From NCBI GenBank assembly GCA_910578855.1, contig CAJTRV010000004.1, forward strand, positions 5,551 through 69,550: 64,000 nt of DNA, written 5' to 3'. The DNA comes from an uncultured Bacilli bacterium (GTDB lineage Bacteria; Bacillota_I; Bacilli_A; RF39; UBA660). This document shows, in pieces, positions 6,497 to 62,064 of this stretch. The notes under the pieces are model-generated. The model ran no database searches and had not been told where the DNA came from. It saw only the letters and a program-made list of their open reading frames with translations. The translations under genes and the position numbers were made by a program. Each line of letters begins with the position of its first letter. The first letter of the stretch is position 1.

Positions 6497-6580
6497 AATA
6501 CCTCCATCAAACTTTACTACTCACTCTTATCATAACACAGTTAAATGAAATATAGAACTACTTTAATCATAAATATCTTC

Positions 6581-7672: not shown

Positions 7673-7684
7673 TCTATCACCCTT

Positions 7685-8677: not shown

Positions 8678-8687
8678 ACCATTCCTC

Positions 8688-10604
8688 CTACTGTTTTAAT
8701 AACAATCTTACTACGTCACCCTCGTAAATTTTCTCGCCTGCTTTAGGTGATTGATAGGCGATTGTCTCCCCAGTTCCAGAAAATTCTACCTTGAAGCTGG
8801 TAAGCTCCTTCATCGCCTCACTGGTACTCTTGCCAACAACATTTGGAACCTTGGCATATTTCTTATCCCCATAGTTATAGCGTTTCTCGCTACTTCCTTT
8901 TCGTTTGGGAATATTAAGAGCAGTAATCGAATCTTGTAAAATAGTCTTAGCAATCGGTGCCGCAACAGTTCCACCATACTGGGTAATGCCCTTGGCATTG
9001 TCAATTGCTACATAGACAACAACCTGAGGATCATCAGCTGGTAAAAAACCAATAAACGAGGTAATATAGTTTCCTACCATATAACGACCATCCTTTACCT
9101 TTTGCGCTGTCCCAGTCTTTCCACCAACCCGGTACCCATCAATAAAGGCTGGGCGTCCTGTTCCATTGGTTACAACACTTTCTAGCGTCATTCGTACTTG
9201 CTCAGATGTTTTCGAACTGATGACTTTGCGGACCACTTTCTTCTTCGTCTCTTTAATTACACCATTGGTTTCCGGTTCATTTAAACTCTTAACAATATAG
9301 GGTTGATATAAGTATCCCCCATTGATGGCTGCACTAACTGCTGTAATCTGTTGAATTGGTGTAACTGATACCCCTTGCCCAAATGACGTCGTTGCAAGTT
9401 CAACAGGCCCTACTTTATCGAGTGGAAACAAGATACCAGATCCTTCTCCATTTAAATCAATTCCGGTTTTCGTTCCAAAACCAAAATTATGAATGTACTG
9501 GAACAATTTTTCCTTACCGATTCGCTGCCCCAGTACAACGAATCCTGGGTTGCATGAATTTTCAACAACCTGTAAAAAAGTTTGTTCCCCATGACCTCCA
9601 TGCTTCCAACACTTAATCTTGGCATTCTCAACCCGAATTGATCCCCCATCGGTAAACTTATCTTTATTAAGATCAACAAGCTTCTCTTCTAAAGCCGTTG
9701 CAAGGGTAATAATTTTAAATGTCGATCCTGGCTCATAGGTCATCCAAATTGGTAAATTTCGATTGATTTCCTCGATGGTATAATCTTGATAATTACTTGG
9801 TGAAAAATTAGGACGCGAAGACATTGCTAATATCTCCCCACTCTTAGGATCCATCACAATTCCAAGAGCTTGATCAGGATTATACTTTAACATCGCATTA
9901 TCTAGTTCCCGTTCTAGTGAGGATTGAATATCATAATTAATTGTTAACGTCATATTCATTCCATCCTGTGGTTTTTCATAGACCTCATTTAATTCTAACT
10001 TGTTTCCCTTGGCATCACTAAAATATTTAATTGCTCCATATTCTCCCGTTAAATACTGATCATACATGAGTTCCAATCCTGATAATCCTTGGTTATCAAT
10101 TCCAACAAATCCAATCGTATGTGATAAATACCGATCGTTAGGATAATTGCGTTTTGACTCTTTTACGAGATAAACCCCTGGTAATTCTAAAGCAGCAATT
10201 TTATCGGCAACATCATATGACAAACGGCGTCCTTCAGGGTGAACCCGTTCAATCGACTCCTTCTTGGTAACATGCTGATAAATAGTCTGATATGAAACAC
10301 CTAAAATCGCACTGATCTCTTTGGCTGTCTTTTCCTTATCTTTAATTTGATTGGGAATAAAGACCAATGACGATGTTGTTAGATTATCAGCGAGAACAAC
10401 CCCATTACGGTCATAGATATTACCACGACTCGCCTCGATAGGAAGATTACGACTCCATAAACCAGCTGCATATTGATTAAGACGTTTATAATCGATTACT
10501 TGAATATAAAAGACTTTCCCAATGATCATCAAAAATAATAGAAGCATGATCAATAAAACAATCCGAATACGATAGTGAATATTTTTAAAGAACATGGTAA
10601 TCAC
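8688..10604 (-). CDS. Class B penicillin-binding protein (SpoVD/FtsI-like transpeptidase) with a C-terminal PASTA domain.
   Basis: SXXK (GSTFK), SXN and KTGT motifs. Dimerisation domain present. PASTA-like C-terminus. Confidence 0.85.
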   Translation of the reverse strand: MITMFFKNIHYRIRIVLLIMLLLFLMIIGKVFYIQVIDYKRLNQYAAGLWSRNLPIEASRGNIYDRNGVVLADNLTTSSLVFIPNQIKDKEKTAKEISAILGVSYQTIYQHVTKKESIERVHPEGRRLSYDVADKIAALELPGVYLVKESKRNYPNDRYLSHTIGFVGIDNQGLSGLELMYDQYLTGEYGAIKYFSDAKGNKLELNEVYEKPQDGMNMTLTINYDIQSSLERELDNAMLKYNPDQALGIVMDPKSGEILAMSSRPNFSPSNYQDYTIEEINRNLPIWMTYEPGSTFKIITLATALEEKLVDLNKDKFTDGGSIRVENAKIKCWKHGGHGEQTFLQVVENSCNPGFVVLGQRIGKEKLFQYIHNFGFGTKTGIDLNGEGSGILFPLDKVGPVELATTSFGQGVSVTPIQQITAVSAAINGGYLYQPYIVKSLNEPETNGVIKETKKKVVRKVISSKTSEQVRMTLESVVTNGTGRPAFIDGYRVGGKTGTAQKVKDGRYMVGNYITSFIGFLPADDPQVVVYVAIDNAKGITQYGGTVAAPIAKTILQDSITALNIPKRKGSSEKRYNYGDKKYAKVPNVVGKSTSEAMKELTSFKVEFSGTGETIAYQSPKAGEKIYEGDVVRLLLKQ

Positions 10605-12178: not shown

Positions 12179-14377
12179 CTATGTTTCTTTTTTAGAATCT
12201 TGTTCCTCTACATATTTATCATTTAAAATAATTTTAATCGTTTCTTTTCCAGTAATTACCGTTCCTGGTTTGATACTCTGGTTAGTAATATATCCATGTC
12301 CTTCTGTTTCATACGCAATTCCTAATAAGGTAAACAGGTGAATGGCATCACCACTCGACCAACCAGTTAAATCAATCATTTTTTTATTGGCATCATTGGT
12401 TAATAGAATTACTTTATCTCCTGACATAACGGTTGTTCCACGAGAAGGATATTGACTAATAATTTTTGCACCCTCTCCAATGACGATTGGCGTAATTTTT
12501 TGATTGGTTAACTCTTTTACCACCGTCTCCTTTGTTTTGTTGATATAGGATGGCAACACATAAGTAACAATCGCCGTCTTATCTAATGTTTCACCAAACA
12601 TATTTCTATATTTGGCAATACTAGTAATCACACTCTTAACCGCGGTATATAGGCCTTTACTTTCACCCCAGCTTGGTTTTCGCATGGCACCATAAATAAT
12701 AATTTCCGGCTCATCTTTGGGATACATCCCAGCAAACGAGAAAATATAATCATTTTTCCCACTCAAATATAGACCTGTTTCATTGTCAAAAATTTGGGCA
12801 GTTCCGGTTTTTCCAATAATATCAAAACCATCAATTTTATATGTTGTTCCGGTCGTTCCAAGATCTTTTCCGTGAATGGTATTCCACATCAATTCTTTCA
12901 TCTTATCAACCGTCGATTGTTTGACTAGTTGTTCTGATTCTTCCCGCTTCGCCTTATACGTAACTTTTTTGGTATTAGGATCGACGATTTTATCAACAAT
13001 ATGTGGTTTCAACATCTTTCCATTATTCGATAGAATTGTAAGGGCTTGTAAATTTTGAATTTGCGTTGTTGTAATCCCTTGCCCAAATCCCGCATTGGCA
13101 ACTTCAATGGGATATGTGAATGAAATATCACCAGTTTGTTCCCGAGGAAGTTCAATTCCCGTCTTCGCCCCAAAACCATATTTTTTAAGACAAGTCCGTA
13201 AATCTTCTTTATTGATAAACCGCGATAGCATATTGGTAATACCAACATTTGAAGAATACTCATACCCTTTATCAAAGGTGATGTTTCCCCAACCTTTTCG
13301 GTTCCAATCATATACCGTATTCTCACCTACAGCAATCGATCCCGATTTAAACGAAGCTTGACCATCATAAGTACCTTTTTCAAGCGCACACATATAGGTA
13401 AATGTCTTCATCGTCGATCCTGGTTCATAGACATATGAGACTAAAGGATTCTCATAGTTTTCAATATCTCGTAAATTAGGATCAAATGAAGGAATCGAGG
13501 AAGTACCAAGTATTTTCCCAGTCTTTGCATCCATAGCTGTTAAAATTAGCCATTCTGGATCATAAACGTTTTCACTTTCTTTCACCGCACTTTCGATAAA
13601 GCGCTGAATATTAGAGTCAAGTGTAAGATAGATATTTGCCCCATCCAAGGCTGGAGTCTTATATTCTTTCGTATCAGGTATTTGATATCCATTTCGGTCC
13701 TGTTGTTGCCTAAGACTCCCATTACTTCCTTTCAGTAAATCATCATACATACTCTCGATACCAAGCTCTCCAACAATATAGCTTTGAATGGTACTAATAC
13801 CATTATCTTCAATTGTTTTATCATACTGTTTGGCATATCCAACGACATAAGAAGCAAAATTTCCATTTGGATAGTAGCGTTTCTTATTCTCAGTAAAACC
13901 AATTCCTGGTAGCTCCAACTGTTCAATCTCTTCTTTTTTTAGCTCCGTAATTCCCCGACCACCAGGTCCAAGCTCAACCTGATAGGCATTGCTACTAAGT
14001 AGCCGCTCTAAATATTCTACAGTCATCCCAAGAACGGGCGCTAATTTTTCGGCTGTCTTCTTTTTATCGACAACATGACGTGGCTTTTTCGAATTGGTGG
14101 TTCGGCTCTCACTTAGATAAGCAACCACCGTATACGAGTAAACATTTAAAGCGAGCGTATTTCCATCTTTATCATAGATATTTCCCCGCTTCGCATATAA
14201 TGTTTTCGTTACTGTATTTCGAGCCTTAGCAAATTTCTCCATATTAATTCCATAAATAATTGGTGACAATGATAAATAACACAATTGCACATACAAAAGA
14301 ACCATAAAAAAAAGGAAGCATTTTAAAATCAAATTTGGAAATTTCCAAGCTTTTAATTTTACACTTCTCTTCTTCAT
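12179..14377 (-). CDS. Class B penicillin-binding protein (PBP2B/FtsI-like) with two C-terminal PASTA domains.
   Basis: STMK (SXXK), SSN and KTGT motifs. N-terminal TM anchor. PASTA repeats at the C-terminus. Confidence 0.85.
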   Translation of the reverse strand: MKKRSVKLKAWKFPNLILKCFLFFMVLLYVQLCYLSLSPIIYGINMEKFAKARNTVTKTLYAKRGNIYDKDGNTLALNVYSYTVVAYLSESRTTNSKKPRHVVDKKKTAEKLAPVLGMTVEYLERLLSSNAYQVELGPGGRGITELKKEEIEQLELPGIGFTENKKRYYPNGNFASYVVGYAKQYDKTIEDNGISTIQSYIVGELGIESMYDDLLKGSNGSLRQQQDRNGYQIPDTKEYKTPALDGANIYLTLDSNIQRFIESAVKESENVYDPEWLILTAMDAKTGKILGTSSIPSFDPNLRDIENYENPLVSYVYEPGSTMKTFTYMCALEKGTYDGQASFKSGSIAVGENTVYDWNRKGWGNITFDKGYEYSSNVGITNMLSRFINKEDLRTCLKKYGFGAKTGIELPREQTGDISFTYPIEVANAGFGQGITTTQIQNLQALTILSNNGKMLKPHIVDKIVDPNTKKVTYKAKREESEQLVKQSTVDKMKELMWNTIHGKDLGTTGTTYKIDGFDIIGKTGTAQIFDNETGLYLSGKNDYIFSFAGMYPKDEPEIIIYGAMRKPSWGESKGLYTAVKSVITSIAKYRNMFGETLDKTAIVTYVLPSYINKTKETVVKELTNQKITPIVIGEGAKIISQYPSRGTTVMSGDKVILLTNDANKKMIDLTGWSSGDAIHLFTLLGIAYETEGHGYITNQSIKPGTVITGKETIKIILNDKYVEEQDSKKET

Positions 14378-14390
14378 AGGTTCACCTCGA

Positions 14391-14687
14391 TTATTTATTA
14401 ATTATTACAATATTATCATTATTATACTCTAAACCCATTTCCTTGGCAACATCTTTCACTTTATCAAAAGATGTTAACTCATTGACTTTCATCGTTAAAC
14501 TCTCATTCTTTTTTTCTTGTTGGGTAATATCATATTTTAACTTTTCAACATTCATTTTTAAATTTCCAATATTGGCTCCACAAAAAATAGAGGAAGCAAA
14601 AGAAAGCACAGCACAAAGAACTGCTGCTGTATATAATATTTTCTCACCCTTAGTAATACGTAGTCTTCTCACTTTTCTCGTTCTCAC
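14391..14687 (-). CDS. ftsL: Cell division protein FtsL.
   Basis: 98-aa bitopic protein with a TM segment and a coiled coil. Canonical position between rsmH and the PBP gene. Confidence 0.6.
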   Translation of the reverse strand: MRTRKVRRLRITKGEKILYTAAVLCAVLSFASSIFCGANIGNLKMNVEKLKYDITQQEKKNESLTMKVNELTSFDKVKDVAKEMGLEYNNDNIVIINK

Positions 14688-14701
14688 ACTGAACCCTCGC
14701 T

Positions 14702-15619
14702 TTATTTTATTCTTTCAATGACTCTAAGTCGCGCACTACGAGCCCGATTGTTTTCTTCTAATTCCTCAGTACTTGGACAAATATTAGCAATGATTTGATA
14801 CTTTGGCAAGTATTCCTCCGGAACTACCGGCAATTGCCGCAAGCTAGCATCCATTGTACTATGTGCTTTAAAGATCGTCTTTACCAACCGATCTTCTAAG
14901 GAATGAAAGGTAATTACACAGACTCTTCCCCCTACTTTGACAAGCTCCAGTGCTTGTCTTACCGCTTCTTCACAGACTGCTAATTCCTGATTCACTTCAA
15001 TTCGAATTGCCTGAAACACTTTGCGTGCAGGATGTTTTAAACGACGATATTTTTCAGGAACATGATTCTTAATAATCTCAACCAGCTCTAATGTCGTGGC
15101 AATTGGTTGTACTTCTCTTGCTTGAACAATTCCCCGGGCAATTTGATAAGCAAATTTTTCTTCTCCATATTCTTTAAAAATACGGGTTAAATCAGAAATC
15201 GTATAAGTATTAACCACTTGATAAGCAGATAACGCTTGATCCTGATCCATGCGCATATCAAGCGGTGCATCCTGATGAAAACTAAACCCCCGATCTTTTT
15301 CATCTAATTGTGGACTTGAAACCCCAAGGTCAAACAAGATCCCATCGACCTCTTGGATTCCCCGCTTCTGTAATTCTTCTGTCATATGACAAAAATTACT
15401 CTTGATAATTTCAAAATTAGGCGCTATTTCACTAAGCCGTTTCTGACTATGAGAAATAGCATCGCGATCTTGGTCAAAGGCGAATAGAAACCCCTTTTTA
15501 ATTTCTTTTAAAATGGCACTACTGTGCCCGCCATATCCCAAGGTGGCGTCGACGATAATACTATCGTCGTGTATTTTTAAATAGGATAGACTCTCTTCTA
15601 ATAAAACACTTTTATGCAT
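14702..15619 (-). CDS. rsmH: 16S rRNA (cytosine1402-N4)-methyltransferase RsmH (MraW).
   Basis: MHKSVLLEESL...DATLGYGGHS...FDLGVSSPQLD are hallmark motifs. Confidence 0.9.
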   Translation of the reverse strand: MHKSVLLEESLSYLKIHDDSIIVDATLGYGGHSSAILKEIKKGFLFAFDQDRDAISHSQKRLSEIAPNFEIIKSNFCHMTEELQKRGIQEVDGILFDLGVSSPQLDEKDRGFSFHQDAPLDMRMDQDQALSAYQVVNTYTISDLTRIFKEYGEEKFAYQIARGIVQAREVQPIATTLELVEIIKNHVPEKYRRLKHPARKVFQAIRIEVNQELAVCEEAVRQALELVKVGGRVCVITFHSLEDRLVKTIFKAHSTMDASLRQLPVVPEEYLPKYQIIANICPSTEELEENNRARSARLRVIERIK

Positions 15620-15627
15620 AGTCCCTC

Positions 15628-16059
15628 CTAATTAAAACTTGTAGAAAATAGATTATCAGCAATTGCTGATAAGTTGCTCTCATTTTCATCAATAAACGCT
15701 TCCCAACGATCTTTACTCCAGATTTCCAAACGATCATTGACGCCAATAATAATACAGTCTTTCACTAGACCGGCAAATTTCATCAGTGGTGGTGTTAATT
15801 TTAAACGTCCTTGTTTATCAAATTCACAAGTGGTCGCACCCGATAAAAAGAAGCGCATGAAATTACGAGCATCTTTCGTATTGGGTAATTCTTTGTACTT
15901 CTCAATAATGGAATTCCATTCTTTCATCGGATAGACAAATAGACAGTTATCAAGACCTCGCGTCACGACAAAAGTTTCTCCTAGGTCATAACGGACTTTC
16001 GACGGAATGGTTAATCGGCCTTTGTCATCAACCGAATGATGATATTCCCCCATCAACAT
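15628..16059 (-). CDS. mraZ: Transcriptional regulator MraZ (start moved to the internal Met, MLMGEYHH).
   Basis: Two DXXXR-type MraZ repeats (DDKGRLTIP, DKQGRLKL). A 143-aa product fits the family. The track ORF extends 20 aa upstream, which is unlikely to be real. Confidence 0.85.
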   Translation of the reverse strand: MLMGEYHHSVDDKGRLTIPSKVRYDLGETFVVTRGLDNCLFVYPMKEWNSIIEKYKELPNTKDARNFMRFFLSGATTCEFDKQGRLKLTPPLMKFAGLVKDCIIIGVNDRLEIWSKDRWEAFIDENESNLSAIADNLFSTSFN

Positions 16060-16336
16060 GAAATCACCCACTTTGCTCCACTTTATTCCACTAGATACCA
16101 CTATTTTACTCCATAACACCCACTTTGTAAATAGGTCCTTTCGATTTTTTCATAAAAAGTGAAGCAAGAAAACAAATTAGAAATCAATTATGACAAGTAA
16201 ATTGTCAAGAAATAAGAATGGCCAACCATAAGACACAAAAAAAGACAATCAAAAATTCGATTGTCGAGACCATTATCAGAAATTGTGAATAGTATTTGAT
16301 AAATCGGTATTCCCAATTTAAAATCAATTCTATCAA

Positions 16337-16795
16337 TTACCAACGTCTTACTTTATTATTTTTTACTCTTTGAATATTTTGAATATTAAGCTGATTGTAA
16401 TTTTGTTCTGCACCACAGAGATTCAATATATCTTCATCAGAGTTTAATTCAAAGAATCTTTTTAACGACTCCTCTAAAGTGATATTTTTACCTTCCATTC
16501 GCTGCTTCATTAGCCATATTTGCATATCACCATAATTCATAATATTTTTCAGAAGCAGTAGGAATTCATCATACTCCATCTTTTCTTGTCTTTTATCTTC
16601 AATAGCTGCTTTTATTATCCAAAGTCTTTGTAACACTTCATCATCCCGAATACCGTATACTAACTTCATATCTTCTAATGTTTCATTTATAATAAGAATG
16701 TCTGTACAACAAAGTTTGCTCGGTTCCGTACCACATCCCTTTTTCTGCTTCCTCTTTAAACTTTCACTCAATTTTTTAAATATGTTTTCACCCAT
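16337..16795 (-). CDS. Hypothetical protein.
   Basis: Start chosen at MGENIF, preceded by GGGAGGAAG. No recognisable family. Confidence 0.4.
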   Translation of the reverse strand: MGENIFKKLSESLKRKQKKGCGTEPSKLCCTDILIINETLEDMKLVYGIRDDEVLQRLWIIKAAIEDKRQEKMEYDEFLLLLKNIMNYGDMQIWLMKQRMEGKNITLEESLKRFFELNSDEDILNLCGAEQNYNQLNIQNIQRVKNNKVRRW

Positions 16796-26937: not shown

Positions 26938-27537
26938 TTGTCAAAGATATCAAATGTTATAACAATGCTTAATCTTCTAGCAACTGGTAAAAAATATGGC
27001 ATTAAAGAACTCGCTAATCTGCTAGAAGTATCACCAAGAATGATTAGAATATATAAAGAAGAGTTAGAAAAAGCAGGAATCTATATTGATTCTATTATGG
27101 GACCATATGGAGGATATGTCTTAAATCAAACAATTAGAATTCCAAAACGTAAATTTAAACAAGAAGATTATCTATTACTCGATCAACTACTAACGAATCA
27201 TATTTCTAATCTAGAAAAAGAAAAACTAGAACTATTAAAAGATAAAATTAGAGGTATCTACATTGGAAGTACCCAAGAAAGAGTCGAATTAAATTTGGAC
27301 GATTACAATTTAAAAAAATATAATATTTTAACACGAGCCATTAAAGAAAGACAAAAAGTAAATACCTTATATTATTCTTATAACAAAGGTGAACATGAAA
27401 GAGTAATCTGTCCAGCTGAAATGTTTTTATTTAAAGATGGCTGGTATTGTGCCGCCTATTGCACCCTTAAACACGATATGAGACACTTTGAATTAAAACG
27501 AATTAGAAATATAGAACTTTTAGATGATAAATTTTAG
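26938..27537 (+). CDS. HTH plus WYL-domain transcriptional regulator (YafY-like).
   Basis: TTG start 7 nt after GGAGG. N-terminal HTH_11-like region (ITMLNLLATGKKYGIKELANLLEVSPRMIRIYKEEL). C-terminal WYL-like segment (DGWYCAAYC...RHFELKRI). Confidence 0.65.
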   Translation: MSKISNVITMLNLLATGKKYGIKELANLLEVSPRMIRIYKEELEKAGIYIDSIMGPYGGYVLNQTIRIPKRKFKQEDYLLLDQLLTNHISNLEKEKLELLKDKIRGIYIGSTQERVELNLDDYNLKKYNILTRAIKERQKVNTLYYSYNKGEHERVICPAEMFLFKDGWYCAAYCTLKHDMRHFELKRIRNIELLDDKF

Positions 27538-53853: not shown

Positions 53854-54230
53854 AATTTTTCTCCTAACATTATTTCCATAATTTCTTGAATTCGATTAAA
53901 GTGACCATTTAGATAATGATACCCAATTAATGCTTCTAAACCAGTTGATTCTTTATAAGTTACAATGTCAGTATGCTTAGGATGACGAGATCCTTTATGA
54001 TTCCTGGCACGTTTCACAATCTGAATCTCTTCGGTTGTTAATGATTCCTGATCTAGTAACATTTTTAAATAACGACTTTGGGCTTTGGCACTAACATATT
54101 GAACAGCTTCTTTCTGAAGATCATTCACTTTACAAAGACCTTTTTTTAATAACAGAGTCCGAATAACAACTTCATAAATACTATCACCAACATAAGCCAA
54201 CGCCAAAACATTTAGGCAATCTGTTTTCAT
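53823..54230 (-). CDS. mrnC: Mini-ribonuclease 3 (MrnC / YazC).
   Basis: LNVLALAYVGDSIYEVVIRTLLL is the RNase III signature. 135 aa. Confidence 0.8.
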   Translation of the reverse strand: MKTDCLNVLALAYVGDSIYEVVIRTLLLKKGLCKVNDLQKEAVQYVSAKAQSRYLKMLLDQESLTTEEIQIVKRARNHKGSRHPKHTDIVTYKESTGLEALIGYHYLNGHFNRIQEIMEIMLGEKLCISMEKMSH

Positions 54231-55108
54231 ACAAGTTCCTCAATTCGATCAAAGGTAATTCCTTTTATTAGACCACTTTTCATATCGTTTAAAATGAGAT
54301 TCATCACGCGGTCATAATCAATTTCCCCACCCTGAATCATACATCCTCGACGTTTACCAATGATATCCAACGTGTTAACCATATCTTCTTCATCAATAGT
54401 CGTAATTCCATAACGTGATTCTAACTCCTGAGGATAATAAGTATATAGCATGTTCAAAATGTAACAGACCACATCATAAATAGGCAATACTTCCTCTTTA
54501 ATTGCCGTTAAACTTGCGAGATTAAGGGCAATAGTTTGATCATCAAACTTCGGCCATAGTACCCCTGGTGAGTCTAACAATTCAAGACGCTGATTGATGC
54601 GAATCCAATCCAATGACTTCGTCACTCCAGGACGGTTTCCAACATTGGCAACCTTTTTTCCAACTAAGCGATTGATCAATGTGCTCTTTCCAACATTGGG
54701 AATCCCGACAACAAGGACCCGAATACGTCTTGATTTCATTCCTCTAGCAATCATATCATCCATCTTATCTTGCATCATCGCTTCAGTCTTTTTCACTATT
54801 CCGGTTGTACTTTGTTGATGCTCTAAATCAACCCCCATTACTTGATAACCTAGTTGTTCATAATACCGAATCCAGCGCTCTGTTTCTTTTTTATCACATA
54901 GATCCATCTTGGTCATAATTAACAACTTCGGCTTATTTCCAATAATCGATTCAATATCTTGAATCTTTGATGAGTATGGCATCCGAGCATCGATTACTTC
55001 ATAAACAACATCAATAACACTCATTTTTTCCTTCATAATTCGCTTGGCTTTCGCCATGTGACCGGGATACCAGTTGATTGTCGTATTTTGTCCTTTATTG
55101 TCGTTCAT
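54227..55108 (-). CDS. rbgA: Ribosome biogenesis GTPase A (RbgA / YlqF).
   Basis: Circularly permuted GTPase motifs (IDARMP...TKMDL...GIPNVGKSTLINRL). Start at MNDNKGQ, preceded by AAGGAAGTGAAACAA. Confidence 0.85.
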   Translation of the reverse strand: MNDNKGQNTTINWYPGHMAKAKRIMKEKMSVIDVVYEVIDARMPYSSKIQDIESIIGNKPKLLIMTKMDLCDKKETERWIRYYEQLGYQVMGVDLEHQQSTTGIVKKTEAMMQDKMDDMIARGMKSRRIRVLVVGIPNVGKSTLINRLVGKKVANVGNRPGVTKSLDWIRINQRLELLDSPGVLWPKFDDQTIALNLASLTAIKEEVLPIYDVVCYILNMLYTYYPQELESRYGITTIDEEDMVNTLDIIGKRRGCMIQGGEIDYDRVMNLILNDMKSGLIKGITFDRIEELV

Positions 55109-55559
55109 TTGTTTCACTTCCTTTAGATTTATTTTTATATTTAACATATTCTTCAATTTTTTTATTATAGTTCTTTAAATCTTCTACAAATTGAGGCTTA
55201 AATTGATTTAAATAATCAATGATTAAATCAGCATATTCATCAATATTTTCATCATCAACTATATCTATGAGATATTTATTGATTCCTTTTTTAGTATTTA
55301 TTCTTTCTACATAAAAGGCTAACAAATTAGTTGGACCTATTTTTTCTTTTGCTGATAAAACAATAGAAATCAAATTTTCTCTTGATGCATAATATCTCGG
55401 TTTAAATCCATTTGACCTAGAAAATAATATCAAAGTACAACCAATAAATAATTTATCTGAACCATTTTTAGGAAATGTTTTGTTTGCAAATTCAATTAAA
55501 CTTTCTGTATTACCCTGTTCGTAATCATCATATAGTTCCATTAAAATTCTATTTATCAT
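55095..55559 (-). CDS. Hypothetical protein, the variable last gene of cassette A. Its 3' end reads through the rbgA RBS and start.
   Basis: 154-aa ORF. Its stop overlaps the rbgA start by 14 nt. Confidence 0.4.
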   Translation of the reverse strand: MINRILMELYDDYEQGNTESLIEFANKTFPKNGSDKLFIGCTLILFSRSNGFKPRYYASRENLISIVLSAKEKIGPTNLLAFYVERINTKKGINKYLIDIVDDENIDEYADLIIDYLNQFKPQFVEDLKNYNKKIEEYVKYKNKSKGSETNERQ

Positions 55560-55569
55560 TTTATCTCCT

Positions 55570-55845
55570 CTATTTATATAGACTTTTTATAACTCTATTA
55601 ATGCAATCTTTGGCACTTCTGTTATTATTTGAAAAACTAATTTTTACTAATGTCCCATTTACTTTAAAAGCATATGGATTCTTTGTGGAAGCAATAAAAT
55701 CCAATATTCTTTCATTACTAGGTTTTCTTCTATCTATTTTTATATTTGTTATTTCATCCACATCTTCTAATTTTACATCATCAAGATTTACATTTCTACA
55801 TCTTTCTAATTTTTCTGCTAATTCTTTAATATTATATTTATTCAT
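55570..55845 (-). CDS. Small conserved cassette protein (about 91 aa), paralog of 57697..57996.
   Basis: The N-terminal 50 aa are about 96% identical to the cassette B copy at the protein level, and about 97% at the DNA level over about 145 nt. The C-terminal half is diverged. Confidence 0.5.
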   Translation of the reverse strand: MNKYNIKELAEKLERCRNVNLDDVKLEDVDEITNIKIDRRKPSNERILDFIASTKNPYAFKVNGTLVKISFSNNNRSAKDCINRVIKSLYK

Positions 55846-55927
55846 AAAATCACACTCCATATTAATTATAAAATCAAATACAATTAATGTTAAATGTGCA
55901 ATTTTTTATTATAAATGATAATCTTTA

Positions 55928-56953
55928 CTAATCTTTATTATTTTCTGAAGTTTCTAATAATTTTGTACTTTCAATAAATTTATCGAAGTCAGAAATATAT
56001 AATTGGTCTTGTTTTTCCTTAAACTTATCATACTCTTTATATGCAAGTTCTTGAGCCACTTTATGAGATATTTTTCCTGCATCATGCAGTATTTCTTGCC
56101 CATTAAATTGTAAAAACGCATCCAATTTTTCTACCCAATCTTTCATTGTCATCGCATTATGATTTTCTGCTTGTAATTCAGCATAATCTAAATACATAGT
56201 AACTATTCTATTTAAGTTTTTTAATTCTTTTTCTGTCAAATAATTTTTAGCAATATCAACATCATATTTATAAATCGTTCCATCAGGAGAACCTGTCCAA
56301 TTTGTTAAACCCATATTGTCTTTTTCTGAATCAACTCTATTATAAATAATCTCTGCAGCAGTATTACCAGTGACTGAATAATGAAGTTTATTCTGCACAG
56401 TTTTAAAAAAAGTTTTAGTGATTTCTGAATCTTTATCATAATCAACACTACAAGATGAATATATATCTGTTATCTTTTGGTAAAATCTTCTTTCACTAGA
56501 ACGAATATTTCTAATTCTTTCTAGTGTTCTTTCAAAATAATCTTCTCCAAAAATATAATTTGGATTTTTTAATCTCTCGTCATCCATAACAACGCCAGTA
56601 ATTAAGTATTCTTTTAGAACTTTTGTTGCCCATATTCTAAATTGCGTTGCTTTTTTGGAATTAACTCTATAACCTACAGCAATAATCATATCTAAATTGT
56701 ATATTTTAGATTTTCTTCCACCTGTACTTTCGTCGGAAATTCCGACAGAAGTTTCTTCCTTAAGTTCACCACTATTTAATATATTATTAATATGTTCTGT
56801 TATGGTACTTCTACCTACTCCAAATAATTCAGCAATCAAATTTTGCGTCAACCAAATATCATTATTAATTAATAATACATTCACTTTGATATCATTATTA
56901 TCATCACGATATATTAAAAAGTCGTGGGTAGTTATTTGTAAATTATTTTTCAT
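55928..56953 (-). CDS. RhuM-family protein (the first gene of cassette A, a member of the KilA-N/Bro-N-related superfamily).
   Basis: WLTQNLIAELFGVGRSTITEHINNIL and KIYNLDMIIAVGYRVNSKKATQFRIWATKVLKEYLITGVVMDDERL are hallmark RhuM regions. Confidence 0.75.
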   Translation of the reverse strand: MKNNLQITTHDFLIYRDDNNDIKVNVLLINNDIWLTQNLIAELFGVGRSTITEHINNILNSGELKEETSVGISDESTGGRKSKIYNLDMIIAVGYRVNSKKATQFRIWATKVLKEYLITGVVMDDERLKNPNYIFGEDYFERTLERIRNIRSSERRFYQKITDIYSSCSVDYDKDSEITKTFFKTVQNKLHYSVTGNTAAEIIYNRVDSEKDNMGLTNWTGSPDGTIYKYDVDIAKNYLTEKELKNLNRIVTMYLDYAELQAENHNAMTMKDWVEKLDAFLQFNGQEILHDAGKISHKVAQELAYKEYDKFKEKQDQLYISDFDKFIESTKLLETSENNKD

Positions 56954-57215
56954 TTATTTTCACCGCTTTCTTATGTTCTTAAATGTCGTAATCACCTATC
57001 TAATTTCTATTATAAATAGCGCAAAAATTACTATATTTTTATGAATTTTTATTGTTTTTTATCATTTTTTAATGAAAACATGCAAGATATAAATTGGATA
57101 GTTTCCTTTATTTATAAGGGTTTAAGGGTGTTCTTAATTAAATCGTAATCAACCAGTTTATGTTTGCCTGATTTTGTCGATTTTCATTATTCATTTATTT
57201 CACTTCCTTCAATTC
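56954..57215. repeat. Direct repeat R2, the cassette boundary. It is a degenerate rbgA 5' end (57150-57213) followed by a ~150-bp regulatory region carrying two TGATTACGA motifs (fwd TCGTAATCA at 56986-56994 and 57143-57151).
   Basis: About 85-90% identical to 58900-59147. Contains aaggaagtgaaataaATGaataatgaaaatcgacaaaatcaggcaaacataaactgg on the minus strand. Confidence 0.7.
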
Positions 57216-57704
57216 AATATTATTTTCTAATAAAACGCTTTCTAATGTTTCATTTTCGTTTATAATATATAAGTTCTCATAATTTCTTTGCAAACAATCC
57301 TCATAGAATGGAACAAATACATTTCCCAAGCCACTAATAAAACTTTCATTATTACCTCGATTTATACACTTTCTCTTTACATCTTCCCAATTATTAATAT
57401 TAGGATATGCTATACTGTATTTAATATTATTTTTATCGAAATAATCGAAGTGTTCTGGTTTTAATTGAACTAAAACAACATCATATTCCTTTATAGCCAT
57501 TCGAATGGCTTTATAGTAATTCTTTGGCCATTCACTATTTACTTCTCTTTTCGTTCCTTTTCTTGCTTCAACAGGTACATTTTCAAGATTAGTATTAATA
57601 TATTTAAAATTACTCGATTCTAAATCAATTACATTCCTATATTTTTTACCCAAAATGCTTTTTCCACACGTTGCAAATCCTGCAATTATTATTCCCTTAG
57701 CCAT
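57195..57704 (-). CDS. P-loop NTPase / small kinase-like protein, the variable gene of cassette B.
   Basis: Walker A motif GFATCGKS near the N-terminus. 169 aa. Its stop abuts the pseudo-rbgA ATG of R2. Confidence 0.5.
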   Translation of the reverse strand: MAKGIIIAGFATCGKSILGKKYRNVIDLESSNFKYINTNLENVPVEARKGTKREVNSEWPKNYYKAIRMAIKEYDVVLVQLKPEHFDYFDKNNIKYSIAYPNINNWEDVKRKCINRGNNESFISGLGNVFVPFYEDCLQRNYENLYIINENETLESVLLENNIELKEVK

Positions 57705-57996
57705 TATTTACCTCTTGTCTATATAAATTTTCTAAAATTTTAGTTAAACAATCATCTGCAGTTAAATTACTATTTTCTGAAAATCTTATTCTAACTAATT
57801 TCCCATTGACTTTAAATATATATGGGTTCTTTTTCTTCATTACAAACGCTAATATTCTTTCATTACTAGGTTTTCTTCTATCTATTTTTATATCTGTTAT
57901 TTCATCCACATCTTCTAATTTTACATCGTCAAGATTTACATTTCTACATCTCTCTAATTTTTCTGCTAATTCTTTAATATTATGTTTATTCATATT
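57697..57996 (-). CDS. Small conserved cassette protein, paralog of 55570..55845.
   Basis: MNKHNIKELAEKLERCRNVNLDDVKLEDVDEITDIKIDRRKPSNERIL... The start is at MNKHN; the track ORF is extended upstream. Confidence 0.5.
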   Translation of the reverse strand, partial: NMNKHNIKELAEKLERCRNVNLDDVKLEDVDEITDIKIDRRKPSNERILAFVMKKKNPYIFKVNGKLVRIRFSENSNLTADDCLTKILENLYRQEVNNG

Positions 57997-58056: not shown

Positions 58057-58899
58057 CTAGATATTATCTTTTTCTCCTAATAGTTTTATCTTTTCTGCAT
58101 TATTAAGTATATCAAGTTGATACTTAGCAATGCTACTTAATATTTCAAATCTTTCTTCTTTGCTTTTTCCTTCTTTAATTAGTTCTGCATTATGTGATTC
58201 TAAATTAGATAATACTGTTAATTCATTTATCGATGCATAATCTCTAACATTTGAGTTTTTTGCTAAATTCGGATTAAGTTCTCTCCATCTTTTAGCAGTT
58301 GTGTTAAATAAGGCAACATTTAAAATATCTGCTTCTTCTGCATACTTTAACCATTCTCTATCTTTATAATAATCATTATCAGGTAATATATAATTTTTAA
58401 TTGCATCTGTATGAATAAGATAATTATTTTTGGTTAAGATTCTTTTTATATCCCATTCCCTATTTTGATTTTCTAACTCTTTTAGTCTTTCAAATTCTTT
58501 TATCAAATATAGTTTAAAAACCGGACTAATAGAAGATGCAAATTCAAAAGCAATGTCTTTATGAGCATAAGTTCCACCATATTTTCCACGCTTCGAATAT
58601 ATCCCAATTGCATTTGTTTTACTACACCATTCTGTAACACTTAGTGTAAAAGTATGAAGTCCTGCCTCACTTTTAAACCCGTCGAATTCGACGGAATTAA
58701 AATTTGGATTGTAAATTGACTCCCAAGTACCTAAAAATTCTAAAGTAATTCTATTTCTTAACCAATTTCTGATAACATCATCTGATGTAGATTTTCCTTC
58801 TTTAAACTTGGTAAAATCAGAAATACAAATATAATCGCTATCATTTATATTTGTTATGTTCACTTTAATATTTTGAACTTCAATTATTTTGTTTGGCAT
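58057..58899 (-). CDS. KilA-N domain-containing protein, the first gene of cassette B.
   Basis: DYICISDFTKFKEGKSTSDDVIRNWLRNRITLEFLGTWESIYNPNFNSVEFDGFKSEAGLHTFTLS...RGKYGGTYAHKDIAFEFASSISPVFKLYLIKEFERL matches the widespread KilA-N family pattern. Confidence 0.7.
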   Translation of the reverse strand: MPNKIIEVQNIKVNITNINDSDYICISDFTKFKEGKSTSDDVIRNWLRNRITLEFLGTWESIYNPNFNSVEFDGFKSEAGLHTFTLSVTEWCSKTNAIGIYSKRGKYGGTYAHKDIAFEFASSISPVFKLYLIKEFERLKELENQNREWDIKRILTKNNYLIHTDAIKNYILPDNDYYKDREWLKYAEEADILNVALFNTTAKRWRELNPNLAKNSNVRDYASINELTVLSNLESHNAELIKEGKSKEERFEILSSIAKYQLDILNNAEKIKLLGEKDNI

Positions 58900-59147
58900 A
58901 TATTCGCCTCTTTTCCATGTCCTTAAAATTCGTAATCACCTATCTAATTCTTATAATAAATAATACCAAAATTATTAGTTTTTATATTTTTAATTATTTT
59001 TTAATGAAAATATGCAAGATCTAATCTAGATAATTTTCTTTATTTATAAGGGTTTAATGGTATTCTTAATTAAATCGTAATCAGCCAGTTTATGTTTGCC
59101 TGATTTTGTCGATTTTCATTATTCATTTGTTTCACTTCCTTTATTAT
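58900..59147. repeat. Direct repeat R3 (cassette boundary) with the same architecture as R2. TCGTAATCA motifs lie at 58930-58938 and 59075-59083. The rbgA-like RBS plus 14 codons lies at 59082-59142.
   Basis: ggaagtgaaacaaATGaataatgaaaatcgacaaaatcaggcaaacataaactgg|ctgattacga on the minus strand. Confidence 0.7.
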
Positions 59148-59312
59148 TTAACATTGAGAATTTAAAAAATTTGCAATTTGTTCTAAATTTTTAAATATTT
59201 TTCCATCATTTCTTATAACTATTCCTCTTGCACCATATCTCATTCTAGGCTCATTCATTTCAATCATACTTTCGCCTAAATCTTCATCAGTTATTTTACA
59301 TATTAATTTCAT
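59148..59312 (-). pseudogene. Truncated NUDIX-hydrolase-like N-terminal fragment (54 codons).
   Basis: MKLICKITDEDLGESMIEMNEPRMRYGARGIVIRNDGKIF resembles a NUDIX N-terminal strand. It is followed by an early stop. Not in the ORF track. Confidence 0.35.
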
Positions 59313-59338
59313 TAATATCATCTCGCTTTCATTTTATA

Positions 59339-59863
59339 TTACAACTTGTATTCTTTTATCTCACAATTCTTCAATCCACGATTTAAAAACCAACCATCAT
59401 TAATGCCATCAAAATATGCACTAAAAGCTTTTGAAACACCACTATGTGCAACAATTAAAACACTTTTATAATTTTGAGTTTTAAGTTCATCTAAAAAATT
59501 ATATATTCTATCAAAAAAGTCTTTTATATTTTCAGAGGTTCCATATTGAATTGTTGTATTATAATTCCAATATTCATCACGATTAGTTATTTCAAGAGGT
59601 TTACCACTTAAATCTCCACAACTTCTTTCTTGAATTCTATCATCAATAATAATTTCATTATTATTAGCATTAATAATATTAGCTGTGTGTTTTGCCCTAA
59701 TTAAAGGTGAAGAAATTATAATATCAAAGTTTATATCTTTAATTTTGTCTCTTAATTCTTCTGCTTGACTTATTCCAAGTTCAGTTAAATCTTCATCTTT
59801 TGTATTATATTGTTTCAATGCATTATGAGGTACTTCACCATGTCTTACTATATATATTTTCAT
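59339..59863 (-). CDS. Histidine phosphatase (phosphoglycerate-mutase-like family), in cassette C.
   Basis: IYIVRHGEV (RHG catalytic motif) plus a second His in VAHSGV. Confidence 0.7.
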   Translation of the reverse strand: MKIYIVRHGEVPHNALKQYNTKDEDLTELGISQAEELRDKIKDINFDIIISSPLIRAKHTANIINANNNEIIIDDRIQERSCGDLSGKPLEITNRDEYWNYNTTIQYGTSENIKDFFDRIYNFLDELKTQNYKSVLIVAHSGVSKAFSAYFDGINDGWFLNRGLKNCEIKEYKL

Positions 59864-59989
59864 TTATTGACTCCTTTTTTATAGAATTTTTATAGTAACA
59901 TTTTATCATCGAGGATATATATTTATTTTATTATTGATACCATTATATTAAAATCATACTCATTTTTACTATTTTTATCTGTTTCTAAG

Positions 59990-60717
59990 GTTATATGATT
60001 ATTCTCTGTTTTTCCTTTAAAATAAAGCAAATCAGCTATTTTAAATTGTCGTGTCATTTCGCGTACACAAGCCAGGAAGTCAGGCCCATATGTTCTTTAT
60101 TTGAATCAACTCTATTATATATAATTTCTGCTGTTTGTTTTGATACAGCAAAATGCATTTTGTTTTGTACTTTTTTAAAAAATTCAATTGATATTGGAGA
60201 TTTAAAATCATAGTCAATACTTGTAGCATATATATCTGTTATTTTTTGATAAAATCGCCTTTCTGATAACCTTATTTCTCTAATTTCTTCTAATAATTTT
60301 TCAAAATAATCTTCTCCAAAAATATAATTTGGATTTTTTTATCTTTCGTCATCCATAACAGCATCATTAATTAGATATTCTTTTAAAACCTTTGTTGCCC
60401 ATATTTTAAATTCTGTTGCTTTTTTAGAATTGATCCTGTATCCAACTACAATAATTACATCTAAATTATATATTTTGGTTTTATATTTTTTACCATCAGA
60501 GGCAGTTATCGAGGATTCCTCGATAACTGAATCCTGATTTAATGCATTATCTTTAGAAATTGCAGATTTTTTTATTTCCTTTTCATATAAATCTCTAGCA
60601 CCTTTAGCAACTCCTCCGCCTCTTTTTGCTACATTTAAATTTTCTTTTAAACCTTGCGGATGTTCTTCTCTTGCAATATCTCGTGTTGCAATCTCTCCTA
60701 TATTTGTTCACTAGCTT
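59990..60717 (-). pseudogene. RhuM-family gene remnant. It carries a nonsense mutation (DDER* at about 60345) and a C-terminal deletion. It is fused downstream of the DinD-like reading frame via a frameshift near 60700-60720.
   Basis: DNA about 85-90% identical to cassette A RhuM (compare 56561-56600 with 60331-60370: tctctcg versus tctttcg creates a TAA). The fragment ..KIYNLDVIIVVGYRINSKKATEFKIWATKVLKEYLINDAVMDDER* is present. Confidence 0.55.
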
Positions 60718-61263
60718 TCATTCCAGACCACCCCTTATAGATTTCATTGGTTTGGTTATGCCTCCTTCTTTCCAAACATCTGTAAGTTTAAATCTATCTA
60801 CAACCCCCATTAGTCTTGCCTTAATCCATTCATCAGAGTACCCTTTATTACGATAATAATTTACTGCTCTATTTATTGCAATTTCAGGATCAAATACTTC
60901 ATCAATCCTCTCACTACCAAGACTCGCTAACCAAACTTTAAATGGTTCGGCCTTAGGGCTAGAAACTGATTCAATTAATCTTAATATTCCATTTGTATCT
61001 AAAGTATCAGTTATACGATTTTTACCATCCCGGGCCTCCATTTTCAACTGCACGATTTCTTCGTGCAGTTCACTTCCTTCATAAATTAATCTTCTTTTTA
61101 AACCGCTCCAATAATTTCTTGGGATTTTTGCTTCAGTTAATACACTTATTACATCAGCAACGCTAAAATAATACTCTTCTTTTTCACTATCCCAAATGCT
61201 TCTTATTTCTTTACCTTCAAATAAATTTGATATTGTTTCTAATTTGTTGTTCAAATATAACAC
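60718..61263 (-). CDS. DinD-like (DNA-damage-inducible protein D-like, Bro-N/KilA-N-related) N-terminal portion, the first gene of cassette C. Probably a disrupted gene.
   Basis: EEYYFSVADVISVLTEAKIPRNYWSGLKRRL parallels the DinD N-terminus (FWSARDLAPLLDYRDWRNFQKVL). The frame is broken at 60718 relative to the downstream continuation. Confidence 0.45.
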   Translation of the reverse strand: MLYLNNKLETISNLFEGKEIRSIWDSEKEEYYFSVADVISVLTEAKIPRNYWSGLKRRLIYEGSELHEEIVQLKMEARDGKNRITDTLDTNGILRLIESVSSPKAEPFKVWLASLGSERIDEVFDPEIAINRAVNYYRNKGYSDEWIKARLMGVVDRFKLTDVWKEGGITKPMKSIRGGLE

Positions 61264-61400
61264 CTCTTTTCTATGGTCTTAAATGCCGTAATCATCTTTC
61301 TAATTCTTAAATAAAAATATGGAAAATTTAAAATCGTACAACCTCCTTATTTATAGGGATTTACTTAAGAGTGCAATAAATCGTAATCAAACAGTTAATT
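61264..61400. repeat. Direct repeat R4, an older degenerate copy of the cassette boundary. It has two TGATTACGA-type motifs (61286-61294 variant CCGTAATCA, and 61381-61389). Only codons about 7-14 of the rbgA-like segment remain.
   Basis: cttaaatgccgtaatcatctttctaattcttaaata...ttatttatagggatttacttaagagtgcaataaatcgtaatcaaacagtt aligns with R2 and R3. Confidence 0.55.
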
Positions 61401-61503
61401 CTGACTGATGAAAAACTTTTTTGATTACTTTCGCTATTCTTTTTTCTTGTCTCATTTTTCCCTTTTGATATATATCCATATTTTTCACTTTCTTTTCAAT
61501 AGT

Positions 61504-62064
61504 TTAAAGTTTTTTACCCATTACAATGGGTCTATCATCATAAATATGAATTCTGTTATTTATATCACTAATTAATGCAACAAGTTTTCTAGGATTTTCT
61601 ACTCCTTCAAAACTCATTCCATTTTTTATTTGTTCAATTAAATTATTAGCATAAAAATTAAAAGATATATCTCCATAATTATTTTTTTCTCTTGCAATTC
61701 CAATATGTTCTATATCAGATATATTTTCTATCCTAAATCCATTTTTAGAATTATATAGAGCTATCCTTTTATTGGTAATAAAATATTCATTATTTTTCTT
61801 TTTATATTTTAAGAATATATTATAAACTAATCCATAAATTAAACAAATTGTTAATATGCCCAAAGTAAGAAAAATTATCAAAATTTCAAAATTTAGTATT
61901 TCCCCACTTTTTATACCTATTATAATTAATATCCAAAATAATAACAATACGGCAAAACCTAATAAAAATCTACCATATTGTTTACTAGTCTTACTAACGT
62001 TTGAAACACCATAGAATAATATTTTTTCATTCTCTTCCAATTTATTTATAAACTCATTTTTCAT
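61504..62064 (-). CDS. Membrane protein with a bacterial PH (bPH_2/YdbT-like) domain.
   Basis: Two TM helices, then FITNKRIALYN...ISDIEHIGI, typical of a bPH domain. AT-rich. Confidence 0.45.
   Translation of the reverse strand: MKNEFINKLEENEKILFYGVSNVSKTSKQYGRFLLGFAVLLLFWILIIIGIKSGEILNFEILIIFLTLGILTICLIYGLVYNIFLKYKKKNNEYFITNKRIALYNSKNGFRIENISDIEHIGIAREKNNYGDISFNFYANNLIEQIKNGMSFEGVENPRKLVALISDINNRIHIYDDRPIVMGKKL

Follow-up and report, generated by a model that had tools for sequence, protein, structure and literature searches.

DUF6870 genes of a cassette array at rbgA in an uncultured Bacilli bacterium and their possible link to large serine recombinases

As a classical integration site of mobile elements, the 5' end of the ribosome biogenesis gene rbgA offers the closest comparison for the locus reported here, namely an array of short gene cassettes, two of which carry a small gene of the Pfam family DUF6870, lying directly upstream of rbgA in 64,000 nucleotides (nt) of DNA from an uncultured Bacilli bacterium (contig CAJTRV010000004.1, positions 5,551 to 69,550; this whole stretch is hereafter the window). 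In the pneumococcus, this 5' end is the attB site of Tn5253, whose integration point follows coding nt 20 (...ATTCAATGGTT) and whose attTn makes the coding sequence of rbgA complete again (PMC8571831). The streptococcal integrative and conjugative elements (ICEs) at the same site have tyrosine integrases (PMC4701971). Another described class is that of the cis-mobilizable elements (CIMEs), as in the islands related to ICESt1 and ICESt3, which are without genes for integration or transfer, keep their att flanks and are piled up beside the target gene by tandem accretion (PMC5704250).

The present locus shares features with both classes. As in the Tn5253/Tn5252-type elements, the insertion lies just past the I-(Q/N)-W codons of rbgA (ATTCAATGGTT in the pneumococcus and ATCAACTGGTA here), and an element-borne replacement of the rbgA 5' end is found in the window cassettes as well; unlike the streptococcal elements with their tyrosine integrases (PMC4701971), the autonomous elements at the site here carry two large serine recombinases (LSRs). 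As in CIMEs, the window cassettes are flanked by att-like ends, have no recombinase or transfer genes and are stacked at the target gene, and an autonomous recombinase-bearing element is found at the same site, in conspecific strains (loci L108 and L109) and in other hosts (L118-L120). However, cassettes of the window type differ from CIMEs in being far smaller (median 1.8 kb) and more uniform, with a common promoter-bearing junction and DUF6870, and in forming arrays in dozens of species known from metagenome-assembled genomes (MAGs), with frequent reassortment of modules; what they suggest is a system of cassettes that is being maintained, and not a set of random decay products.

We propose, with a probability of about 0.5, that the two small genes of the window, copies A and B, are DUF6870 paralogues in recombinase-less miniature relatives of an LSR element that inserts into rbgA, with DUF6870 as an accessory partner of the LSR. 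The descriptive part of this proposal, comprising the family, the anatomy of the cassettes, the shared integration point, the DUF6870-LSR-LSR elements found there, the recombinant nature of copy A and the purifying selection, we hold with high confidence. The functional part, that DUF6870 is an LSR partner (a directionality factor or another accessory or regulatory protein), which the cassettes would keep because it makes them movable by LSRs acting in trans, is tentative, and we would give it slightly less than an even chance. In the mechanism that we have in mind, a full element ending in DUF6870-LSR1-LSR2 would insert into rbgA right past the (I/V)-N-W codons in uncultured mouse-gut Bacilli, and since it brings along a ribosome-binding site and N-terminal codons for the gene, the essential rbgA would stay intact. 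A cassette is built in the order of an att-containing junction with promoter, an optional KilA-N, RhuM or Bro-N gene, DUF6870 with a promoter-like leader, a cargo gene and a pseudo-rbgA 5' end, where the variable enzyme cargo takes the place of the LSR genes in the full element. Homologous recombination repeatedly crosses over in the 5' half of DUF6870, which is near-identical DNA in many cassettes, and reassorts the modules upstream and downstream, copy A being such a recombinant, and DUF6870 would be kept by purifying selection as allowing the excision and integration of cassettes by LSRs from the full-length element in trans.

The link to LSRs comes from relatives of the two genes outside the cassettes, in which DUF6870 adjoins an LSR gene, whereas copies A and B have no LSR neighbour. 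Wherever the context of distant family members in Clostridia (23-33% identical to copy A) was examined, the gene was followed directly by one to five LSR genes. For example, the gene precedes five recombinase genes in Vescimonas pMM35_01, stands directly upstream of an LSR in MT837700 and in the Oscillospiraceae plasmid CP141730, and precedes LSR triplets in the very common elements of P0211 and P0187, while the end of the relaxase-bearing element of P0290 has the order Sigma70_r4, a 66-aa protein (aa, amino acids), DUF6870 and LSR. This last place is that of xis in the layout of Tn916. The LSR-linked lineages are merely 30-53% identical to one another.

The same link is seen at rbgA itself. 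Conspecific strains were found via an identical mini-RNase III protein, whose gene neighbours rbgA; an exact look-up with RbgA gave no match, its N-terminus being cassette-specific. Two mouse-gut loci (L107 and L110) have the same array as the window and L111-L116 have other last cassettes at rbgA, while in L108 and L109 rbgA is abutted by an element ending in Sigma70_r4, PemK, a short resolvase, DUF6870 (91 aa) and two LSRs of 569 and 528 aa. From about residue 12 onward the conspecific RbgA proteins are 97-100% identical, and the sequences converge at AACTGG, followed by TATCCCGG; upstream of AACTGG they vary with the adjoining element, and downstream they are identical. The proteins of L107-L116 have 293-306 aa and differ only in the first ~12 residues, together with the ribosome-binding site. 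Since these differences follow the upstream cassette or element, each insertion rewrites the N-terminus and the expression signals of the essential rbgA.

Moreover, the DUF6870-LSR1-LSR2 module was found on four more contigs from IMG/VR (L117-L120), with rbgA directly 3' of the module in L118-L120, and L117 ending ~30 nt past LSR2. The elements of L118 and L119 have the same ends in front of different host rbgA genes, and the two sequences part right after AACTGGTA, a pattern that is typical of site-specific integration. The LSRs at the rbgA site are proteins with the domains Resolvase, Recombinase and Zn_ribbon_recom. LSR genes or their relics are found inside some cassette arrays as well (L028, L053 and L067, with a relic in L046). 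In fact, one cassette type consists of Bro-N, an LSR of 411 aa and an RT_UG31 reverse transcriptase (PADLOC E 1e-74), in L028 at 5076-8836 and in L053 at 12984-16647; its short LSR is frameshifted in these two and intact in L067 (4814-6049). In this cassette type the LSR holds the position behind Bro-N that is usually occupied by DUF6870.

The factors that direct LSRs towards excision, or recombination directionality factors (RDFs), include SprB of SPbeta and Orf7 of TP901-1. They do not form a homologous family, so that a lack of sequence similarity does not exclude such a role. A further example is CD1234 of C. difficile, with CD1231 (PMC5025042). The recombinase-linked DUF6870 resembles the RDFs of LSRs as a small stand-alone protein whose gene lies beside a recombinase at the end of an element near the att site; the DUF6870 genes of the window are unlike them in having no recombinase neighbour. 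No similarity of DUF6870 to a characterised RDF or to any solved structure was found, CD1234 being outside this comparison. The original prediction had named an adaptor, a regulator or a directionality factor as possible roles, and of these the directionality factor fits the position upstream of LSR genes outside the cassettes, while the two-domain adaptor is at odds with fold and conservation, as described below.

The family itself accounts for both proteins. Copies A and B match the Pfam model of DUF6870 (PF21757) with 71.3 and 57.9 bits against a gathering cut-off of 24.4, as do all 53 members of our alignment A4, and the initial view that the protein has no recognisable family thus had to be abandoned. 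No function is described for DUF6870, no mention of it was found in a literature search, and neither PHROGs nor PADLOC has a model for it; recurrent weak Pfam matches (IFT80 and FecR_C) were far under their cut-offs and were disregarded. The family comprises 2169 clusters at 50% identity, nearly all of them stand-alone proteins of 80-130 aa. In the few members that are longer, DUF6870 runs on into pieces of unrelated truncated genes (DarA_C, HisKA, MT-A70 and others). We considered these members as informative domain fusions and read them instead as read-through from interrupted host genes; that they run into assorted truncated genes suggests that the DUF6870 gene is often right at the end of an element, beside an interrupted host gene. 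Within this family the two window genes represent a 91-aa subfamily, found in uncultured gut Bacilli, which has become widespread in cassettes that have no recombinase; most other members examined adjoin LSR genes.

Copy A, the second gene of cassette A (55570-55845; 91 aa; Pfam E 6e-20), and copy B, the second gene of cassette B (57697-57993; 98 aa), are 2.1 kb apart on the minus strand, as are all genes within 52-64 kb and all features of the array given below. The position first given for copy A is correct, and that of copy B, given as ending at 57996, was one codon too long, with its ATG at 57993. A protein identical to copy A is present in public metagenomes (P0001). Between them the two copies have 74% aa identity over 92 aa (BLASTP E 5e-49), distributed as originally described, with a near-identical N-terminal half and a diverged C-terminal one: in residues 1-50, 48 of 50 (96%) are the same, with Y4H and N34D as the only differences, and at the DNA level five mismatches in nt 1-144 (at 10, 42, 66, 100 and 144; 96.5% identity) stand against 40 in nt 145-273 (~69%). 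The proportions of synonymous and nonsynonymous differences (pS and pN) are 0.135 and 0.028 in codons 1-50, and 0.486 and 0.266 in codons 51-92.

Such a contrast had led to the idea of a two-part adaptor, in which a conserved N-terminal domain would contact a common partner and a variable C-terminus the cassette-specific cargo. Besides the contrast itself, the idea gains from the C-half of copy A accompanying the same 154-aa cargo in L046. However, the AlphaFold model, computed from 53 sequences of three clades (pLDDT, the predicted local distance difference test, 83; pTM, the predicted template modelling score, 0.72), is a single compact domain with predicted helices at 6-17, 43-53 and 78-89 and a predicted hairpin at 59-68, and the mosaic boundary would fall inside the helix 43-53. 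An earlier model from 18 close relatives had pLDDT 42 and was discarded, and a comparison with solved structures and predicted viral structures gave no significant match. Family-wide, it is the C-half that forms the conserved core: the motif ER..F.....NPY.F...G..V.I.F......D.L is present in both copies; R46, F50, N56, Y58 and F71 are invariant across the three clades, which are 23-33% identical to copy A; and the invariant or near-invariant residues at the boundary and in the C-half are R46, F50, N56, P57, Y58, V67, I69, F71, D80 and L86, with only E14 and V24 conserved in the N-half. The variable part in LSR-linked copies is rather the N-terminal ~35 residues. Moreover, in pairs of cassettes with the same cargo the C-half is not the more similar part (0.88 aa identity, against 0.90 for the N-half), and C-half types and cargos combine freely in both directions, one C-half type preceding different cargos and one cargo following different C-half types. 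The adaptor idea is thereby largely refuted and keeps a very small probability.

The mosaic is, as its sequence relationships indicate, a footprint of homologous recombination between sublineages within a conserved gene and not a domain architecture, because the halves of copy A match different loci, its breakpoint can be placed at nt 133-152 and supported breakpoints cluster at nt 90-165. Compared with L001, from a different MAG, copy A has a single mismatch in nt 1-152 and 36 in nt 153-273; compared with L046, it has 38 in nt 1-132 and 14 in nt 133-273, which delimits the breakpoint interval to gene nt 133-152 (55694-55713; codons 45-51). The 5' half together with the RhuM gene is 95-97% identical to L015-L017, and the 3' half (91%) together with the 154-aa cargo (93%) matches L046, a locus that has a distant RhuM as first gene and, in its own 5' half, no more than 75% identity with copy A. 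Two copies 2.1 kb apart with a near-identical segment might also arise by segmental duplication or gene conversion between paralogues within one genome. However, the near-identical 5' half is common to other species at 91-99%, and its near-identity is not intragenomic because L001, from another MAG, differs at 1 of 152 nt; the halves of copy A have their closest relatives in different foreign loci; and the flanking cassette genes are unrelated, as had been noted from the start. In fact, the DNA identity of the N-terminal segment does not stretch over the whole cassette, where otherwise only the junctions of ~260 nt are common. The cross-genome comparison thus refutes a duplication, whose residual probability is negligible.

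Among 72 intact cassette copies, 2080 pairs with both flanks available were compared, of which 83 have only the upstream module in common, 28 only the downstream module and 11 both; since the same event can underlie several pairs, the numbers are to be read as a pattern and not as a rate. Of 39 statistically supported breakpoints, 31 are at nt 90-165. The synonymous diversity of codons 1-50 is about half that of codons 51-90. A DNA- or RNA-level element behind this low 5' divergence was considered and set aside: the deficit is only ~1.4-2-fold, and linkage to recently spread upstream modules together with recombination suffices to explain it. With pN/pS of 0.35 in codons 1-50 and 0.26 in codons 51-92 among the 72 copies, both halves are under purifying selection, and the length and the conserved family residues are kept in these copies from dozens of MAG species.

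The two genes are part of a low-GC island at 55.1-61.4 kb (24-30% GC, against 35-38% elsewhere), directly upstream of rbgA and bounded by a membrane-protein gene and rbgA. The island consists of three cassettes of ~2 kb (C, B and A), stacked head to tail and separated by junction repeats of ~260 nt. Cassette A begins with a RhuM-family gene (55928-56953; 341 aa; PF13310 E 4e-109; PADLOC PDC-S05 E 5e-140), of which 95-98% identical copies exist in other MAG species, and ends with a cargo open reading frame (ORF) of 154 aa without family match (55095-55559). This ORF continues 14 nt beyond the start codon of rbgA (overlap 55095-55108), and an 84%-identical copy of it is found 3' of a divergent DUF6870 in L046. 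Cassette B begins with a KilA-N gene (58057-58899; 280 aa; PF04383 E 4e-19; PADLOC PDC-S22 E 7e-116), with 96-98% identical copies in other MAGs, and ends with a P-loop protein gene (57195-57704; 169 aa; PHROG 4182 E 3e-23; no Pfam match), whose start is overlapped by the 3' end of copy B. Cassette C (59148-61263) is without DUF6870 and is decayed, with a truncated Bro-N gene (60718-61263), a RhuM pseudogene fragment (~60085-60700; 79% identical to part of the intact RhuM), a histidine phosphatase gene (59339-59863) and a 57-aa fragment ORF (59148-59321). Copy A is preceded by a conserved leader (55846-55927) with a predicted sigma-70-like promoter, TTAACA-17-TATAAT (55893-55865; 11 of 12 in a promoter scan), and a GGAG ribosome-binding site. 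A leader of this type stands 5' of most cassette DUF6870 copies, with or without a first gene. Its derivation from the promoter 5' of the small resolvase gene of L108 was considered and dropped, the leaders of other LSR-linked copies being unrelated.

At the rbgA end, the attR-like right end of cassette A (55069-55125; crossover at ~55069/55070; repeat family D5/D6) provides the ribosome-binding site, the ATG and the first 13 codons of rbgA (54227-55108; Pfam MMR_HSR1 on orthologues), up to AACTGG, and the last cassette passes into the real rbgA sequence as ...ATCAACTGG followed directly by TATCCCGGTCACATGGCG. The other junctions are J2 between cassettes B and A (56954-57216), J1 between C and B (58900-59146; from repeat comparison) and the leftmost J0 (61261-61443), which is attL-like and partly degenerate (Box 1 at 61377-61396 and Box 2 at 61278-61300). 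Read along the coding strand, a junction consists of a pseudo-rbgA ribosome-binding site with ATG and ~13 codons to AACTGG, Box 1 (TTGATTACGATTTA), an A/T-rich -35/-10 promoter and Box 2 (GGTGATTACGACATTTAAG), the last just 5' of the first gene of the cassette. The junctions of the window are 74-90% identical to one another, and the junction of ~260 nt is found at 153 places in related loci; with the fetched loci oriented by their DUF6870 match, it lies on the gene strand in every one of them, as do the window copies.

In an alignment of 35 junctions (A3), Box 1 (TTGATTACGATTTAWT...) and Box 2 (GGTGATTACGACATTTAA...) are direct repeats ~190 nt apart that flank the promoter, and the bases after them co-vary, with TAAGAACA/TAAGAACA before KilA-N and RhuM and xCCCC/xCCCC before Bro-N and others. 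The two boxes could be paired operator sites or the scar of a nested insertion into a P'-type arm. To the left of J0 (61400-61480) the sequence encodes MDIYQKGKMRQEKR..., much as the right end of the L120 LSR element encodes a pseudo-N-terminus (MDMYQKRKMRQEKK...), a resemblance in sequence that suggests a relic of a full LSR element upstream of the array; for this reason a 186-aa membrane ORF (61504-62064) may be part of an older insertion.

Beyond the window, the search for the 91-aa subfamily gave more than 500 members (69-100% identity). Among GTDB species representatives there are 77 loci, all but three in MAGs of uncultured Bacilli, Mollicutes/'Tenericutes' and other Firmicutes, the three exceptions being short contigs binned as Muribaculaceae. 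The first genes are often 95-98% identical to those of the window, though the RbgA proteins of the hosts are merely 35-56% identical, and in many loci the last cassette is followed by rbgA. Arrays reach at least eight units (L057). Our census of 57 junction-to-junction cassettes from related genomes (median 1.8 kb) contains DUF6870 in 36, typically 60-90 nt past a KilA-N or RhuM gene, or else behind a Bro-N gene, as in the 77 loci, and the small protein is indeed a shared core component of otherwise different cassettes, as had been suspected. Acetyltransferases of the GNAT type are by far the commonest cargo (Acetyltransf_1 matches 11 of the 73 cargo clusters of L001-L089), besides cytidine/blasticidin-type deaminases, NTP_transf_6 and GrpB nucleotidyltransferases, P-loop kinases, phosphatases, YhcG nucleases, UDG, HD and ASCH proteins, a profile that resembles chromosomal integron cassettes or drug-modifying enzymes. 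Public MAG contigs often break inside the 5' half of DUF6870 (L029, L059, L076, L083, L085, L086, L088 and L089), that of L083 stopping at residue 51, exactly the mosaic boundary. Such breaks are expected because the segment is a multi-copy near-identical repeat, and the arrays are fragmented systematically in short-read MAG assemblies and have probably been overlooked or under-reported.

Co-occurrence with KilA-N and RhuM genes elsewhere, a point raised in the original prediction, is also found: a KilA-N, RhuM or Bro-N gene lies directly 5' of DUF6870 in 27 of the 36 cassettes. This regular company could mean that DUF6870 is a partner or regulator of the preceding gene, for example the modulator of a defence candidate, or in Clostridia of a Sigma70_r4-like protein. 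In line with this, each of the three first-gene types is matched along its entire length by a PADLOC phage defence candidate (PDC-S05, S22 and S13), and the Clostridial elements (MT837700, P0211, P0187 and P0290) have a Sigma70_r4-like gene at a distance of one or two genes 5' of DUF6870. However, each occurs without the other, eight cassettes having DUF6870 right after the junction and nine having a first gene without DUF6870; the copies of L108, L117-L120 and L106 have neither a first-gene type nor a Sigma70_r4-like gene at a fixed upstream position; the same 5' half of DUF6870 stands behind all three unrelated first-gene types; and the gene has its own promoter-like leader. Moreover, the PDC families are defined as single-gene candidates from guilt-by-embedding, and as yet untested (bioRxiv 10.1101/2024.01.29.577857), and no paper treating KilA-N, RhuM and Bro-N together was found in our literature search. 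On balance, a partnership with the first gene seems unlikely to us.

For the proposed partnership of DUF6870 with LSRs, there are several points that weigh against it. The recombinase acting in trans is assumed, as no LSR gene is present in most cassette loci or in the window, where tblastn gave no LSR match anywhere in the 64 kb. The canonical logic of LSRs, which recombine attP with attB only, is hard to square with repeated insertion beside an occupied site, and it may instead be homologous recombination among the junctions that builds up the stacks. Accessory factors are dispensable for some LSRs of conjugative transposons (TndX and TnpX), and DUF6870 has no known fold among the structures compared. 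Because 21 of the 57 cassettes are without DUF6870, it cannot be needed by every cassette, and about one fifth of its copies look disrupted in a count made by eye from listings, some of them perhaps by assembly errors.

These last two points would also suit the alternative that the cassette DUF6870 is a functionless relic, which persists as promoter and translation start of the cargo and as a homology 'handle' for the exchange of modules. The cargo genes begin 10 nt past the stop codon of DUF6870 or overlap it, and the breakpoints are concentrated within the gene, as such a relic would have it. However, purifying selection acts on both halves, length and conserved residues are retained across the 72 copies, and a segment that served only as a handle could do without an intact reading frame. 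We therefore regard a relic as quite improbable, and the LSR partnership remains the reading that we prefer.

With integron cassettes, the cassettes of the window type share the small size and exchangeability, the single orientation, the fixed site and a cargo rich in GNAT and small enzymes; unlike them, they have no conserved attC-like hairpin, appear from sequence to have a promoter of their own in each cassette and are linked to recombinases of the serine type. The junctions gave no sign of secondary structure (0 conserved pairs by RNAalifold over 35 junctions; z of -0.93 for the fold of single-stranded DNA), and no IntI was found among the island ORFs, 10 further window ORFs and the 25 most frequent cargo families. 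The cassettes are not integron cassettes. A bolder version of our proposal, that the arrays are a working integron-like system in which an LSR pair in trans captures and releases promoter-bearing mini-cassettes at rbgA, with DUF6870 licensing the reaction, appears rather doubtful; the licensing might consist, for example, in permitting recombination between types of site that the LSRs normally refuse.

As to the rest of the window, Pfam found no recombinase or transfer gene among all island ORFs, and no recombinase family among the 10 further candidate ORFs outside the island. An Rfam scan of 54-64 kb gave no match, and the island is not enriched in promoter-like or terminator-like sites. An HTH-WYL (helix-turn-helix-WYL) protein is encoded at 26938-27537, and further low-GC patches (26-29% GC), at 22-23 kb and 25-28 kb, may be other accessory islands.

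Altogether, DUF6870 is not a new protein family; the locus connects it with serine recombinases and brings to light the compact array at the rbgA site. Should the bolder, integron-like version be true, DUF6870 would also provide many LSRs from mobile elements of gut Firmicutes, a large group, with their missing directionality or accessory factor. The family is large and very abundant in gut metagenomes, and the link to LSRs gives it a concrete and testable role; it is through accessory proteins and directionality factors that serine integrases become tools working in both directions. Moreover, uncultured gut Bacilli have at a classical ICE integration site a compact and widespread cassette array, which carries phage-defence candidates and acetyltransferase-type enzymes.

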